This document shows positions 6,746 through 11,194 of a stretch of 64,000 nt of DNA, in pieces. The notes beneath the pieces are model-generated. The model ran no database searches. It saw only the letters and a list, made by a program, of their open reading frames with translations, and was not told the DNA's origin. Source of the stretch: Panacagrimonas sp. (GTDB lineage Bacteria > Pseudomonadota > Gammaproteobacteria > Nevskiales > Nevskiaceae). The translations under genes were made by a program, and so were the position numbers. The stretch lies in assembly GCA_041603235.1 (NCBI GenBank), contig JBFIES010000012.1, positions 33,951 through 97,950 on the forward strand, given 5' to 3'. How positions within the stretch are numbered: the stretch's first letter is position 1; the number at the start of each line of letters is the position of its first letter.

Positions 6746-7237
6746 ATGCGTTCAAGGGAGTTGGGCTTGGAACACGAAGACCATGACAGTGTTTTCTTTG
6801 TCAATTTTGGAGCGGTTCTAGCTGCGCTGGGTGGCATCTTTGTCATCTGCATCGTCGCGGCACGGATTCTCGTTCCCGATCAATCACCAGATCCGGATGC
6901 GCTGGCGCAGCTGGAACAGCGAATCCAGCCTGTCGGCAAGGTCGTGACTGACCCCGCCATGCTGGTCAAGGTTTCGGCCAAGGCCGAAGCGCGCGAAGCC
7001 TATACGGGTGAAGAAGTAATGGCCAAGGCCTGCAATGCCTGCCATCAGACCGGTGTGCTGGACGCACCGAAGAACGGTGACAGTGCTGCCTGGACTGCAC
7101 GCGCCGGCGCTGCAGGCGGTCTCGACGGACTGGTCGCTTCCGCTATCGAGGGCAAGAACGCAATGCCTCCGAGAGGCGGCATGGCTGATCTGTCGGATGA
7201 AGAGATCAAGGCTGCCATCGAATTGATGATGCAGTAA
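6746..7237 (+). CDS. Cytochrome c5 family protein
   Basis: N-terminal TM helix, RIQPVGKV, heme motif CNACH, AMPPRGG axial Met. Start may be the TTG at 6767. Confidence 0.92.
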   Translation: MRSRELGLEHEDHDSVFFVNFGAVLAALGGIFVICIVAARILVPDQSPDPDALAQLEQRIQPVGKVVTDPAMLVKVSAKAEAREAYTGEEVMAKACNACHQTGVLDAPKNGDSAAWTARAGAAGGLDGLVASAIEGKNAMPPRGGMADLSDEEIKAAIELMMQ

Positions 7238-7240
7238 CAA

Positions 7241-7275
7241 GCCTTAGTACAAGCGCTAAGGCTTTAAGGTTTTAC
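7241..7275 (+). terminator. Probable terminator of the cytochrome c5 gene
   Basis: gccttag-N8-ctaaggc hairpin followed by a T-rich tract. Confidence 0.5.
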
Positions 7276-7375
7276 AGAGCGGCGCAGAGGGATGATGAGC
7301 CGACATTAACGACTGCCATCGAAGCAGTTGTCACGCAGGAAAGTGGGGCCCGTCTCGTGGGGACGATCGGGTTGA

Positions 7376-7506
7376 CCTGAGGTTACTACGAGGCAACCGG
7401 CCATGGCCTGGCCGGGGGCAACGCGTGCAAGTCACGCGGTTGGGTAGCTTGGCCGTAGTGAAATCTGATCGCGGAAAGCGACAGACAGGGAAAATCACCT
7501 CAGGAG
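7376..7506 (+). ncRNA. Candidate structured 5' leader RNA that sequesters the porin RBS (class unknown)
   Basis: Nested helices 7376-7383/7497-7504, 7384-7390/7454-7460, 7397-7403/7409-7415, 7422-7427/7433-7438 and 7469-7472/7478-7481, read by eye. Confidence 0.5.
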
Positions 7507-7513
7507 TTACAAA

Positions 7514-8650
7514 ATGAAAATATCTAAAGCGTTGTTGGGCTCGACCGCCCTGCTGGCGGCCTTTGCTTCGGCCGGCGTGCAGGCGGCAGACAAGCGGAAA
7601 GTTTCCGGTGCTGTGACCGCATTGTCAGCAGCTGATCTGGACATCGGTGCCAGCTTCGACATGTCCTATGACTGGGCGGCAAACGACACAACCGTCGGCC
7701 GCACGTTCCGGACAGAAAATGATGGCTTCGTCATGCACCAGGTCAATGTGCGCGGCGGTGCGCAGTGGTCCAATGGCATTGGTGCTCACGTCAATGTGGT
7801 GCTCGGCAACGACGCCAATGTCATCAGCGGCAATGGCGAAGACGATGACTTCGACCTGACTCAGGCCTATCTGTCCAAGACACACGGCAACCTGAGCGTC
7901 ATGGGCGGCCGTTTCGTCACGCTGGCTGGCATGGAAGTCATCAACCCGACCGACAACCTCAACGCTACGCGCTCTTTCCTGTTCGGCTTCCAGCCTTTCG
8001 TGCATACCGGCGTGCGCGCCACGTATGCGCTAGGCGATACGTGGACCTTCACGGCCGGCGTCAACAATGCGCAGTTTGCCAACACCGGCAGCTCCATGGC
8101 TGGCGACAACAACACCGACACTACATTCGAAGCACAAGTCGGCTATACCCCCTTTGAAGGCCTTTCGATGTTCCTGACCGGCTATACCGGCAACGAGGAC
8201 GCAGGTGATCGCGCCCAGACTCCCGGCATGGTCAACGACGCCGATTTGCGCTTTGACACGATGGATCTGGTCGTCAACTATCAGGTCCTTCCACAGCTGT
8301 ACGTAGGCTTGAACGCGGACTACTTCAACTCGGAGGACCCGACAGGCGGCAGCAGCGAGGCTGTTGGCGTGGCGAGCTATCTCAACTACCAGTTCAACTC
8401 GAAGCTGCGTGCGGCTTACCGAAACGAGTACCTGGAATTCAAGGATGCCGGCGCTGGCAGTGGTAGCGATATCCTGCGCTCCAACACACTGACTCTCGGC
8501 TACAGCTGCATCGAGAATTTCGAAATTGCACTGGAAGCCCGTCATGACAAGGCCACCGGCGACGCAAATTCAGCCCCGTTTGCACCGATCGACATGTTCG
8601 CAGAGGACGATCAGGTCACCGGCACGCTGCGCACGACCTTCAAGTTCTGA
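7514..8650 (+). CDS. Outer-membrane beta-barrel protein, putative porin (BBP2/DUF1597-like)
   Basis: Signal peptide, FDLTQAY...GRFVTLAGMEVI...N ATRSFLFGFQPFVHTGVR, terminal aromatic residue (FKF). Confidence 0.8.
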   Translation: MKISKALLGSTALLAAFASAGVQAADKRKVSGAVTALSAADLDIGASFDMSYDWAANDTTVGRTFRTENDGFVMHQVNVRGGAQWSNGIGAHVNVVLGNDANVISGNGEDDDFDLTQAYLSKTHGNLSVMGGRFVTLAGMEVINPTDNLNATRSFLFGFQPFVHTGVRATYALGDTWTFTAGVNNAQFANTGSSMAGDNNTDTTFEAQVGYTPFEGLSMFLTGYTGNEDAGDRAQTPGMVNDADLRFDTMDLVVNYQVLPQLYVGLNADYFNSEDPTGGSSEAVGVASYLNYQFNSKLRAAYRNEYLEFKDAGAGSGSDILRSNTLTLGYSCIENFEIALEARHDKATGDANSAPFAPIDMFAEDDQVTGTLRTTFKF

Positions 8651-8672
8651 ACCTACCAGAGCTGAATGACAG

Positions 8673-8705
8673 AGGGGCCGCGCATCGCGCGGCCCCTTTT
8701 TATTT
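8673..8705 (+). terminator. Rho-independent terminator
   Basis: aggggccgcgc-atc-gcgcggcccct followed by a T-run. Confidence 0.9.
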
Positions 8706-8712
8706 GTTCGCA

Positions 8713-8729
8713 TGCCTTGTTTTGGTGCA
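8713..8729. promoter_or_regulatory. NtrC-like enhancer site
   Basis: TGCCTTGTTTTGGTGCA against consensus TGCACY-N5-GGTGCA: right half exact, left half partial; about 100 bp upstream of the predicted sigma54 start site. Confidence 0.55.
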
Positions 8730-8800
8730 AGCCGAGCCGAAGCTGCGCAGCGCGCTCAAGAAAGATACATAACCTGTTGTTTATTATGATTTTGTTACAG

Positions 8801-8817
8801 TAGGCACGGGCTTTGCT
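8801..8817 (+). promoter_or_regulatory. Sigma54 (-24/-12) promoter
   Basis: taGGCACGGGCTTTGCT, with GG and GC separated by exactly 10 nt; preceded by an AT-rich tract at 8760-8800. Confidence 0.8.
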
Positions 8818-8902
8818 GAGAGTCCTGCGGGGGCGCACACCAATGTCGGTGTCCGTTCTGGGATGGTTCCCAATAAAACTTCCTCAGGAGAGGTTCTCAG
8901 CA

Positions 8903-9616
8903 ATGAATTTCAAGAAAGCAGTGGTAGGTTCTCTGATTGGCGCCGGCATGCTGGCCAGCCCCGCCGCGTTTGCAGGCTTCACCGGCAATATCGGGGTCAC
9001 CAGCAAATATTTGTTCCGAGGTATTGAGCAGGGTGGTGGCGCGGCCGTGCAGGGCGGCATTGACTACGGCCACGATGAAACCGGTCTGTACGCAGGCACC
9101 TGGGTATCGAACATCGGCTTCGCCGGCGGTAGCGGCGACGACGAAGGCGCTGAGGTGGATCTGTACGGCGGCTGGTCCAAGGAATTTGGCGGCGTCAGCG
9201 TAGATCTGGGCCTGCTCTATTACTGGTACCCGGAAGAAGATGAAGCCGGCGCCGACTACAGCACGCTCGAATATTACGGCGGCCTCGGTTATGGCCCGTT
9301 CAGCGTTACCTACTACTACTCCAGCGAACTGAACTACTTCATGGGCACGGGCAACGCCGAATCCGCAGGTTATGTTTCTGTTGGCATGGAGCTGCCGATC
9401 ACGGATTCACTGGCCTTCGTTGCCTCCTACGGTAATTTCCACGGCGACGAGATTGAGGCTGTTCTTGGCACCGATGACAACTACAGCGATTACACGATTG
9501 GCTTGGCCAAATCCGTGGAAGGCTTCGGTGACTTCGGTTTCACCATTGTTGACACCGATCTGGACGACGACGATCTGGAAGTTGTCCTGAGCTGGAACAA
9601 GGGCTTCGATCTCTAA
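8903..9616 (+). CDS. TorF-family putative porin
   Basis: TSKYLFRGIEQ...AVQGGIDY...GLYAGTWVSNI...EVDLYGG. ATG at 8903 follows an AGGAG RBS; the longer start in the ORF track is unlikely. Confidence 0.85.
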   Translation: MNFKKAVVGSLIGAGMLASPAAFAGFTGNIGVTSKYLFRGIEQGGGAAVQGGIDYGHDETGLYAGTWVSNIGFAGGSGDDEGAEVDLYGGWSKEFGGVSVDLGLLYYWYPEEDEAGADYSTLEYYGGLGYGPFSVTYYYSSELNYFMGTGNAESAGYVSVGMELPITDSLAFVASYGNFHGDEIEAVLGTDDNYSDYTIGLAKSVEGFGDFGFTIVDTDLDDDDLEVVLSWNKGFDL

Positions 9617-9685: not shown

Positions 9686-11194
9686 TCAGGTACGCCCGCG
9701 ATCCAGTTCTCGCATGCGAAGTGCTTCCGCCAGATGCACGTTGCCTATGCCACTAGCGCCAGCCAGATCTGCGATGGTTCGGGCTACCTTGAGGACCCGG
9801 TGATAAGCGCGCGCCGACAAACCCAGACGAGACATGGCGGCCTCCAGGAGTTTTCGCCCCTGAGCATCCAGCGCGCAGTGTGCTTCGATCTGCTTCGGGC
9901 TCATCAAGGCATTGACGATGCCACTGCGCTCCATCTGCCTGTCCCGCGCACTTTGCACGCGCATTCGAACATCGGCACTGGATTCGGCTTCGGTGTCAGT
10001 TGCACTCAGCAAAGCCTCGCGTTCGACACGTGGGACAAATAACTGCAGATCAATTCGATCCAGCAGCGGGCCCGAAATCTTGCCTCGATATCGGCTGACC
10101 TGATCCGGGGTACAACGACATTTTCCTGCGTCATCGCCAAGAAAGCCGCAGGGGCAAGGGTTCATGGCGGCCACCAGCTGGAAACCTGCGGGAAAATCCG
10201 ACTGACGCGCTGCCCGCGACACGGTGATCTGGCCAGATTCCAGGGGCTCACGCAGAACCTCCAGCACGGACCGGGAGAATTCCGGCAGTTCATCCAGAAA
10301 CAGGATGCCCAGGTGCGCGAGCGTGATCTCACCCGGGCGCGGAACCGCTCCGCCACCGACCAGCGCCACGCCGGAAGCCGTGTGGTGAGGCGCGCGATAA
10401 GGCCTCTGCCCCCAGCGGCTCACATCAAACCCGCCCTGCCCAACCGAGGCAATGGCGGCGACTTCGATGGCTTCGGCCTCAGTCAGGGCTGGCAGCAAGC
10501 TTGGAAGCCTTGCCGCCAGCATGCTCTTGCCCGAGCCCGGCGGGCCAATCATCAGCATCGAGTGAGATCCGGCTGCGGCAATTTCCAGTGCGCGCTTGGC
10601 CTGCTGCTGGCCGCGCACATCTCCCAGATCCGCTACCGCCGCTGCTGTCACACCGCTCGCGCTCGACGCTACCTGGACCAGCGAATTGGCGTGCAACTGC
10701 GCGCAGAGTTCCCCGAGGTGCCGTACTGGATAAATCTTCGCATCTCGCGCCAGCGCTGCCTCTTCGGCGTTCTGTGCCGGGACCAGCATGCGCCGTCCCG
10801 CCTGCGCAGCCTTTAACGCGGCTGGGAGTGCGCCGCGCACTGGGCGAATCTCCCCCGACAGCGACAGCTCGCCGAGCACCTCGATATCTGCAATAGCCGC
10901 CTCGGGAATCTGGCCAGAGGCCGCGAGCAGGCCCAGTGCAATCGCCAGATCAAAGCGCGCGCCTTCCTTGGGCAGATCGGCGGGCGCCAGATTGCAGGTC
11001 ATGCGCCGATTAGGAAACTGATATCCGCAGGTCTGCAGTGCCGCCTTGACCCGGTCCTTGGCTTCGCGAACCGCCGCTTCGGGCAGTCCCACGATATTCA
11101 GTCCGGGCAGGCCGGGCGCCAAATGGACCTCCACCGTGACCAGGTCTGCGGCCAGCCCGTTCTGTGCGCGCGATAGGACGGTGGCCAGCGACAT
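9686..11194 (-). CDS. comM: YifB/ComM Mg-chelatase-like AAA+ ATPase
   Basis: NLAPADLPKEG, GPPGSGKSMLA, RPYRAPHH, LFLDELPEF, AAMNPCPCG. Confidence 0.95.
   Translation of the reverse strand: MSLATVLSRAQNGLAADLVTVEVHLAPGLPGLNIVGLPEAAVREAKDRVKAALQTCGYQFPNRRMTCNLAPADLPKEGARFDLAIALGLLAASGQIPEAAIADIEVLGELSLSGEIRPVRGALPAALKAAQAGRRMLVPAQNAEEAALARDAKIYPVRHLGELCAQLHANSLVQVASSASGVTAAAVADLGDVRGQQQAKRALEIAAAGSHSMLMIGPPGSGKSMLAARLPSLLPALTEAEAIEVAAIASVGQGGFDVSRWGQRPYRAPHHTASGVALVGGGAVPRPGEITLAHLGILFLDELPEFSRSVLEVLREPLESGQITVSRAARQSDFPAGFQLVAAMNPCPCGFLGDDAGKCRCTPDQVSRYRGKISGPLLDRIDLQLFVPRVEREALLSATDTEAESSADVRMRVQSARDRQMERSGIVNALMSPKQIEAHCALDAQGRKLLEAAMSRLGLSARAYHRVLKVARTIADLAGASGIGNVHLAEALRMRELDRGRT

Follow-up and report, generated by a model that had tools for sequence, protein, structure and literature searches.

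A conserved structured RNA leader upstream of a BBP2-type porin gene of Panacagrimonas, a candidate cis-regulatory element

Introduction

Control of porin synthesis at the mRNA level has been worked out chiefly through small RNAs and the 5' untranslated regions (UTRs) of enterobacteria; to our knowledge, almost nothing is known of such control in the Nevskiales or for porins of the BBP2 type. In the 64-kb stretch of Panacagrimonas sp. DNA analysed here (contig JBFIES010000012.1; hereafter the window, whose numbering is used throughout), 276 nucleotides (nt) lie between the stop codon of a cytochrome c gene (7235-7237) and the ATG (7514) of a BBP2 (OmpL-like) porin gene. An original prediction, made from the letters of the window alone, held that this spacer is a large folded leader which locks the Shine-Dalgarno (SD) sequence of the porin gene. 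The locus raises the question whether the spacer specifies a structured RNA and, if so, how that RNA might act on porin synthesis.

Analyses of the window and of orthologous loci indicated that the conserved element comprises positions 7299-7513 (about 215 nt) and that it is very probably a genuine structured RNA leader. Our tentative reading, to which we assign a probability of roughly 0.4, is that the leader acts in cis and post-transcriptionally, as an effector-driven switch of porin synthesis between an open and a closed state of the SD.

Conservation of the leader among orthologous loci

Orthologues were gathered by a metagenome scan and by exact-protein look-ups, which yielded 12 further distinct, Panacagrimonas-like loci (13 leaders with the window). 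The porins of these 12 loci are 45-55% identical to the window porin, and the order cytochrome c gene, spacer of about 230 nt and BBP2 gene is common to every orthologous locus; in 11 of the 13 loci the leader begins 0-2 nt past the cytochrome c stop codon. The orthologous spacers could be aligned end to end, with invariant blocks (GCCGAC, GCCCGUCUCGUGGGGA, CAACCGG, CGGGGGC, GGCC and CUCAGGAG) alternating with unalignable stretches, namely the loops, hairpin H1b and the apex of helix P2 (elements as in Table 1). Mean identity of the leader core was 71%, against 46% and 54% at the four-fold degenerate sites of the cytochrome c and porin genes, respectively, and the leader is therefore under purifying selection. 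The persistence of an unbroken 215-nt leader with a three-way junction next to saturated synonymous sites implies a specific molecular function; the leader may offer a platform to which a protein, a small RNA or a ligand binds, or it may be an unusually elaborate stabiliser. A conserved small open reading frame (ORF) was ruled out, the differences in length between blocks not being multiples of three. The structured leader of the original prediction is thus real and conserved, and it folds beyond shuffled controls (see below), while its first 60 nt or so (7238-7298) lie outside the conserved element.

A further locus, L036 (1-3702), from a more distant relative (porin 41% identical), carries the order cytochrome c, Porin_4, Gcw_chp and BBP2. 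The leader motif is missing from both L036 spacers, as searched with the covariance model R1 (see below) with filters off. The arrangement of a cytochrome c gene followed by a porin gene predates the RNA motif.

Folding energy and covariation

Comparison with dinucleotide-shuffled sequences showed that the spacer of the window folds better than such controls. For 7238-7530 the z-score was -3.70, with none of 200 shuffles as good, and for 7299-7520 it was about -3.4 (z = -3.36; 1 of 200).

A covariance model, R1, was built from the consensus structure and the 13 sequences were realigned to it. Standard pairs fill 92.1% of the alignment cells of the modelled pairs; sliding the 3' partners along lowers this share to 36-53%. 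Six of the 35 modelled pairs are changed on both sides, and the covariation score exceeded those of all 500 shuffles. Such double changes are about 14 times commoner in modelled pairs than among all 12,141 column pairs (background 1.5%; p = 1e-5); when the window lineage is removed the enrichment is 7-fold (p = 0.035). The clearest single compensatory event is found in L029, where GUG in the 5' strand of P2 is replaced by CAC and its partner CAC by GUG; this swap carries a one-base register shift, so that column counts miss it. The leader is conserved in the orthologues with some covariation; a lack of both would have refuted the original prediction.

RNAalifold run on the R1-realigned sequences returned the same fold together with the mini-hairpin next to the SD. 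A first run on a MAFFT alignment had instead paired the invariant strand with the SD, a result that was set aside once the partner strand was recognised and P2 emerged as the ground state; in our explanation, the variable segment that precedes the 3' strand of P2 had been placed inconsistently in that alignment. All-against-all analysis of column covariation yielded no further helices, because most of its signal comes from the divergence of the window lineage from the other leaders, which produces many apparent covariations.

Consensus structure

The predicted consensus consists of hairpins H1 and H1b, a three-way junction (P1/P2/H2), hairpin H3, a GGCC linker, hairpin H4 and, proximal to the SD, a purine block with an A-rich mini-hairpin (Table 1). 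The 5' block runs on as AGGGA(GUC) in most orthologues and shows partial complementarity to the SD region. Four of the seven pairs of H1 show two-sided changes, and H1 and the mini-hairpin taken together score above all 500 shuffles; a short hairpin recurs at the position of H1b in most orthologues, with a sequence that is unrelated. The P1/P2/H2 junction returns in independent single-sequence minimum free energy (MFE) folds of most leaders, and P2 in those of all 13. Nine of ten P2 pairs change on the 3' side alone, through G-C/G-U and U-A/U-G exchanges, and the apex of P2 has a distinct sequence in each orthologue and forms an extended hairpin nonetheless. Compensatory replacement was also seen in H2, whose pair G7400-C7412 is A-U in L001; pair U7426-A7434 of H3 is C-G in other leaders, and in H4 two pairs differ in both bases from CGUCG.CGC/GCGGCGGCG, the form present in other leaders. 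The mini-hairpin is GAGG/CCUC in the orthologues, where AGGAG stays unpaired at its 3' foot.

Table 1. Features of the cytochrome c-porin locus and predicted elements of the leader, in window coordinates
Feature	Sequence or parts	Position	Strand	Remarks
c-type cytochrome gene, membrane-anchored		6746-7237		PF13442
Lineage-specific insert	37 nt	7238-7274	+	right after the cytochrome c stop; outside the conserved element; no orthologue has it
Relic of ancestral cytochrome c 3' end	ACAGAGCGGCG...TGA	7275-7298	+	old stop TGA 7296-7298, non-coding now
5' block	GCCGAC	7299-7304	+	first conserved bases; 13/13 leaders (ACCGCC/GCCGCC in two)
P0 (candidate helix)	GCCGAC-AGGGA / UCUCAGGAGGC			5' strand: the 11 nt directly behind the cytochrome c stop
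H1	ACGACUGC / GCAGUUGU, loop 7317-7323	7309-7331	+	in MFE
H1b	CAC-GCAGGAAA-GUG	7332-7345	+	small, variable; in MFE
16-mer	GCCCGUCUCGUGGGGA	7348-7363	+	identical in 12/13 leaders; also complementary to the SD region
P1	GCCC / GGGC	7348-7351 / 7416-7419	+	closes the three-way junction P1/P2/H2
P2 base	GUCUCGUGG / CUACGAGGC	7352-7360 / 7386-7394	+	long imperfect hairpin
P2 apex with P3	A7363-U7383, C7364-G7382; P3 UCGGG (7367-7371) / CCUGA (7376-7380), loop UUGA	7363-7383	+	in MFE
Alternative-conformer 5' strands	CCUGAGGU (7376-7383) and UACUACG (7384-7390)	7376-7390	+	
H2	CCGGCCA / UGGCCGG, loop UGGCC	7397-7415	+	invariant GGCC in loop
H3	CGCGUG / CACGCG, loop CAAGU	7422-7438	+	96% of cells paired
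GGCC linker, single-stranded	GGCC	7451-7454	+	12/13 leaders; GCCC in L028
H4	CUG-A-UCGC / GCGACAG, loop GGAAA	7465-7484	+	97% of cells paired
SD-proximal mini-hairpin	AGG (7487-7489) / CCU (7498-7500), A-rich loop	7487-7500	+	92% of cells paired
SD and start codon	AGGAG (7502-7506), ATG (7514-7516)	7502-7516	+	CUCAGGAG invariant in 13/13 leaders
BBP2 (OmpL-like) outer-membrane porin gene		7514-8650	+	Pfam PF07642, E = 6e-49
Intrinsic terminator, 3' of the porin gene		8671-8699		terminator scan; kept in orthologues

Most of the hairpins drawn in the original prediction were recovered: those at 7309-7331, 7332-7344, 7397-7415, 7419-7442 (paired at 7422-7438) and 7465-7484 are present in the MFE fold and conserved in the orthologues. 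The hairpin at 7351-7365 exists as a local alternative, the conserved pairing of this strand being P2. The GGCAA said to precede each of the hairpins at 7397-7415 and 7419-7442 is not conserved, other leaders having GAGACAACC and GGGGCGUCG. Two alternatives to P1, a local hairpin GCCCG/CGGGC and a pairing GGCU/GGCC, were not preferred; the local hairpin is confined to higher-energy conformers.

Transcription signals

A marine metatranscriptome contained a contig of 267 nt over 7313-7575 and another over 7663-7938, and none over the cytochrome c gene. This suggests that the leader, at least from the foot of H1 on, belongs to the porin mRNA and that porin RNA is more abundant than cytochrome c RNA. 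As the first contig covers 7313-7575, the RNA starts upstream of 7384; a start downstream of that position would have refuted the original prediction. No terminator was found in 7299-7513 by the terminator scan and no U run follows H1-H4, which does not fit a transcription attenuator. Two promoter candidates were discarded: TTTACA-N16-GATGAG (7272-7299), noted by eye, is too weak to call, and a sigma-E-like pattern in L001 is not conserved.

These data bear on whether the conserved blocks are DNA-level signals, promoter or operators of the porin gene, with no RNA element involved. A promoter must be nearby and none was located, and several invariant blocks show no covariation, as such signals would allow. 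The paired columns, however, contain abundant G-U pairs and tolerate G-U and not A-C, which argues for RNA from the + strand only; compensatory changes were found in H1, H2, H3, H4 and P2, the hairpin shape is kept despite unrelated sequence, and the metatranscriptome contig runs from the leader into the coding sequence. An explanation by DNA signals alone is scarcely credible to us.

The Shine-Dalgarno region

The predicted mini-hairpin puts the SD AGGAG at its 3' foot, 8 nt ahead of the ATG, and the SD bases are 0.3-0.9 unpaired in the predicted ensemble; for the orthologues, the predictions leave the SD mostly accessible or paired only in part. An RNA thermometer of the ROSE or fourU kind does not match this arrangement, in which the mini-hairpin pairs CCUC and leaves AGGAG mostly unpaired.

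An open SD would suit a passive leader with no switch, acting as a 5' stabiliser that shields an abundant porin mRNA from decay dependent on its 5' end and, through its A-rich open SD, as an enhancer of strong, constitutive translation. The known system of this kind is ompA of E. coli, whose long structured 5' UTR stabilises the mRNA of a major outer-membrane protein. Our leader resembles it in being a long structured leader of the gene for an abundant outer-membrane protein, with hairpins near the presumed 5' end and an A-rich, mostly open SD; it differs in having neither sequence or structure homology to it nor an Rfam match, and in its architecture, which over about 215 nt combines a three-way junction and an invariant 16-mer with two GGCC blocks that are likewise invariant. 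In favour of a stabiliser, P2 clearly belongs to the ground state, the predictions leave the SD unpaired in part or for the most part, and the A-rich tract and mini-hairpin keep AGGAG free. The RNA contig, moreover, begins at about 7310-7313, at the foot of H1, which would make H1 5'-terminal (contig ends are not transcription starts), and porin RNA was seen where cytochrome c RNA was not. A stabiliser would nevertheless have no need for the invariant 16-mer, the three-way junction or the GGCC in both loop and linker; the invariance of P2 on one side only, that of the strand GUCUCGUGGGG, hints at a further constraint there, and in the window lineage a perfect 8-bp anti-SD evolved. A purely passive role is possible, and we consider it somewhat unlikely.

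The strand GUCUCGUGGGG is itself complementary to the SD. In 11 of the 13 leaders, the window and L001 being the others, this invariant strand is the best 14-nt complement of the SD. The duplexes were computed at -10.5 to -18.2 kcal/mol, and of the 12 leaders tested, 11 had a value that was equalled in 0-10% of their shuffled versions. Across the 13 leaders 96.9% of the cells of the GUCUCGUGGGG-SD pairing are standard, with changes that are one-sided and compatible only (G-C to G-U, U-G to U-A). A P2 5' strand that stays fixed while the 3' strand drifts through wobble pairs is what one would expect to see if a second partner existed for the 5' strand.

In the switch that we favour, GUCUCGUGGGG would be held in P2 in the ground state, with the SD open in an A-rich context, and the compact 5' domain would probably also protect the mRNA. 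Released from P2, GUCUCGUGGGG could pair with the SD in the orthologues; in the window lineage a second anti-SD, CCUGAGGU, would give an SD-locked conformer about 3-4 kcal/mol above the ground state. An effector (protein, small RNA or small ligand) acting on the junction or on P2 would shift the balance between SD-open and SD-closed forms. The data show the conservation, the fold, partial covariation, the lack of a known family and the presence of the leader in RNA; that the leader switches, that an effector drives it and that translation or stability is thereby affected is our inference.

Several observations weigh against such a switch. In the eight leaders for which it was computed, the state with GUCUCGUGGGG forced onto the SD lies +5.8 to +12.5 kcal/mol above the P2 state, so that the switch would depend on a large input or on kinetic control, and L029 keeps P2 and weakens the SD complement (-10.5 kcal/mol, equalled by 26% of shuffles). 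Two invariant blocks cannot covary, and the complementarity of GUCUCGUGGGG to the SD is therefore indistinguishable from plain conservation; the invariant bases, in addition, lie mostly within stems and not in the junction loops expected of a binding pocket. The comparison covers only 13 related sequences from a handful of lineages, in an alignment fitted to the R1 model, and much of the counted covariation is one split between the window lineage and the rest. The RNA evidence consists of one leader contig of depth 4-7, which is strandless and may stem from DNA contamination, and a promoter scan found no sigma-70 promoter on the + strand near the leader.

The lineage of the window

The 37-nt insert of the window carries a terminator-like hairpin, AAGCCUUAG/CUAAGGCUU (7239-7264), followed by UUUAAGGUUUU; the hairpin is in the MFE fold, and the terminator scan passed over it because its U tract is interrupted. 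In the other orthologues CAGAGCGGC(A/G)UCUAA/UGA ends the cytochrome c ORF and adjoins GCCGAC. The insertion in the window brought a new stop codon context and moved the stop about 60 nt from the leader; in L001 this point holds another insert, which is shorter. Genomes with about 98% identity in the rest of this region are hypervariable at the insertion point.

According to the original prediction, CCUGAGGU (7376-7383) pairs with ACCUCAGG (7497-7504) and so covers the SD, and UACUACG (7384-7390) pairs with CGUAGUG (7454-7460). The first complementarity is indeed perfect and the second pairing exists. Both helices lie outside the MFE fold, are confined to the lineage of the window and L001 (none in the other 11 leaders) and clash with the conserved P2/P3 pairing, CCUGAGGU being located in the variable P2 apex. 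As parts of the consensus they were therefore rejected. With both forced, the resulting SD-locked conformer lies +3.6 kcal/mol above the ground state in the window; in L001 the difference is +2.8 kcal/mol. By these energies, the window lineage is predicted to have two nearly balanced folds.

The window lineage has jointly lost the 5' AGGGA and the GGC after the SD and gained the new perfect anti-SD; with the loss of that GGC, the candidate helix P0 decayed. For this single lineage, the joint changes suggest selection for the ability to mask the SD. The lineage thus resembles a natural experiment, with an insertion, the decay of P0 and a new anti-SD in P2.

Helix P0 and GGA motifs

Across the leaders P0 is paired in 82.7% of cells, with no covariation. 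It is part of the MFE fold of L026, L028, L030, L031 and L032 and is weak in L029, L033 and L035 (-4.5 to -6.2 kcal/mol); the duplex of the window has -4.1 kcal/mol.

Through P0 the leader might serve as an intercistronic element, in which ribosomes ending on the cytochrome c gene melt P0 and so couple translation of the porin gene to it, or in which the RNA is processed. Long-range structural coupling of translation is known from the long-distance interaction of phage MS2 and from the IF3-L35-L20 operon. The likeness to these systems is that a block beside the upstream stop complements the SD about 210 nt downstream; the difference is that P0 is imperfect, not universal and without covariation. 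Coupling would agree with a leader that in 11 of 13 loci starts no more than 2 nt behind the cytochrome c stop, with the share of paired P0 cells and the five leaders that have P0 in their MFE fold, and with the finding of no promoter between the cytochrome c and porin genes; in the window, where the insert shifts the stop by about 60 nt, P0 is degenerate and a different anti-SD is present. It is opposed by the lack of covariation in P0, by the weakness of P0 in L029, L033 and L035 though their stops adjoin the block, by the lack of cytochrome c RNA where porin RNA is seen and by the terminator-like hairpin that stands between the two genes in the window. We hold such coupling to be unlikely.

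The original prediction had also pointed to CsrA/RsmA, a dimer of which might block translation by binding to GGA motifs, including the one within the SD. Leaders under such control, e.g. those of glgC and hcnA, are similar to ours in being purine-rich, with a GGA in the SD and a second one shortly upstream. The SD AGGAG occurs in all 13 leaders and an AGGGA lies 12-20 nt upstream of it in 11, within a predicted stem; a 5' GAC-AGGGA-GUC hairpin is found in about half of the orthologues. However, a GGA inside an SD is trivial, the conserved AGGGA is predicted to be in a stem and not in a loop, L004 and L022 lack it, and the window has no such 5' hairpin. As for GGAs in loops, those of H1b (GCAGGAAA) and H4 (GGAAA), which the original prediction had counted among the sites, turned out to be specific to the window lineage. 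Since known leaders of this class differ from ours in these respects, and the large junction would have no role, control by CsrA, proposed from motifs in the sequence, appears very unlikely.

Family status and distribution

The leader matches no known RNA family, in agreement with the original prediction. Searches with Rfam 15 (4227 covariance models) gave no match at E<=10 within 7270-7513, and none at E<=5 for the leaders of L004, L028, L029, L031 and L033; literature searches returned nothing on the leader motif. Searches with R1 found exactly one copy per orthologous locus, at 125-160 bits, and no extra copies in the 64-kb window, in L005-L020 (16 loci with more distant BBP2 porins) or in L036. 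The leader is accordingly described as a previously uncatalogued, clade-restricted candidate cis-regulatory RNA of the structured mRNA leader kind. Exact matches to the 16-mer GCCCGTCTCGTGGGGA were also seen in three IMG/VR viral contigs (L037, L038 and L039); none fits the covariance model, and we take them as chance matches.

The junction invites comparison with metabolite or ion riboswitches. The GGCC linker may form a pseudoknot with the GGCC of the H2 loop, judging from their complementarity; the duplex was computed at -3.4 to -10.2 kcal/mol, and both blocks are invariant and show no covariation. The modelled junction P1/P2/H2 and this pseudoknot might constitute an aptamer of a new class which tunes porin synthesis, and with it the permeability of the outer membrane, to a small molecule or ion in Nevskiales, its ligand setting SD access by toggling GUCUCGUGGGG between P2 and the SD. 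A conserved, aptamer-like fold with covariation was found, among 13 related sequences; the fold is complex and combines a junction and invariant blocks with what may be a loop-linker pseudoknot, the invariant strand has mutually exclusive partners, and the lack of a family match makes a new class conceivable. Translational riboswitches that sequester the SD, e.g. the thiM thiamine pyrophosphate (TPP) and SAM-II riboswitches, likewise have a multi-helix junction 5' of the SD and one strand with two exclusive partners including the SD, and their nearly isoenergetic conformers have a counterpart in the window lineage only.

A riboswitch would be expected to recur before functionally related genes across diverse taxa, whereas in the sequences scanned this leader was found before the orthologous BBP2 gene alone. 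Its single copy, its one gene type and its narrow clade therefore argue against a classical metabolite riboswitch, as does its absence from the more distant BBP2 loci. Unlike the thiM TPP and SAM-II type, it matches no Rfam riboswitch and has no candidate ligand, the neighbouring genes (cytochrome c, porin, Gcw_chp) hinting at none. The invariant bases are mostly in helices, and the SD-bound state of the orthologues is 6-12 kcal/mol uphill, a balance being reached only in the window lineage and there with a different anti-SD. A ligand-binding aptamer is thus improbable. If a ligand were found, the leader would be a riboswitch controlling envelope permeability; otherwise it is an orphan leader of local interest. 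Comparable motif candidates are common and the range of this one is narrow, and it is its size, its junction and its anti-SD turnover that make the leader a testable case.

Neighbouring genes and related sequences

The closest genome is an uncultured Panacagrimonas metagenome-assembled genome (Nevskiales), whose porin is 96% identical to the window porin, and Tara Oceans data contain near-identical contigs. Over the whole 64-kb window no Rfam family reached the gathering score and no tRNA gene was found.

The next gene after the porin gene in the window codes for a Gcw_chp outer-membrane protein, which follows the porin wherever the orthologous contig extends far enough, except in L026, L029, L030 and L035. 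Its start is probably the ATG near 8903 (MNFKK...) rather than the TTG at 8813. Comparison of the porin-Gcw_chp spacer (8651-8905, about 250 nt) with those of L022, L023, L028, L032 and L033 revealed that only the intrinsic terminator, which is strongly conserved, and one short GGCAUGGCCGUUGCC-like block are shared, the rest having diverged. A second leader inside this spacer was rejected on these grounds.

Upstream of the cytochrome c gene, other loci have fatty-acid desaturase and diacylglycerol kinase genes; the gene content of the window is unlike theirs and the window is rearranged there. Downstream, at 9686-11194 on the - strand, lie genes for a comM/YifB-type Mg-chelatase, a BMFP (UbiK-like) protein and a PF07399 membrane protein, and this block is also present at most orthologous loci.

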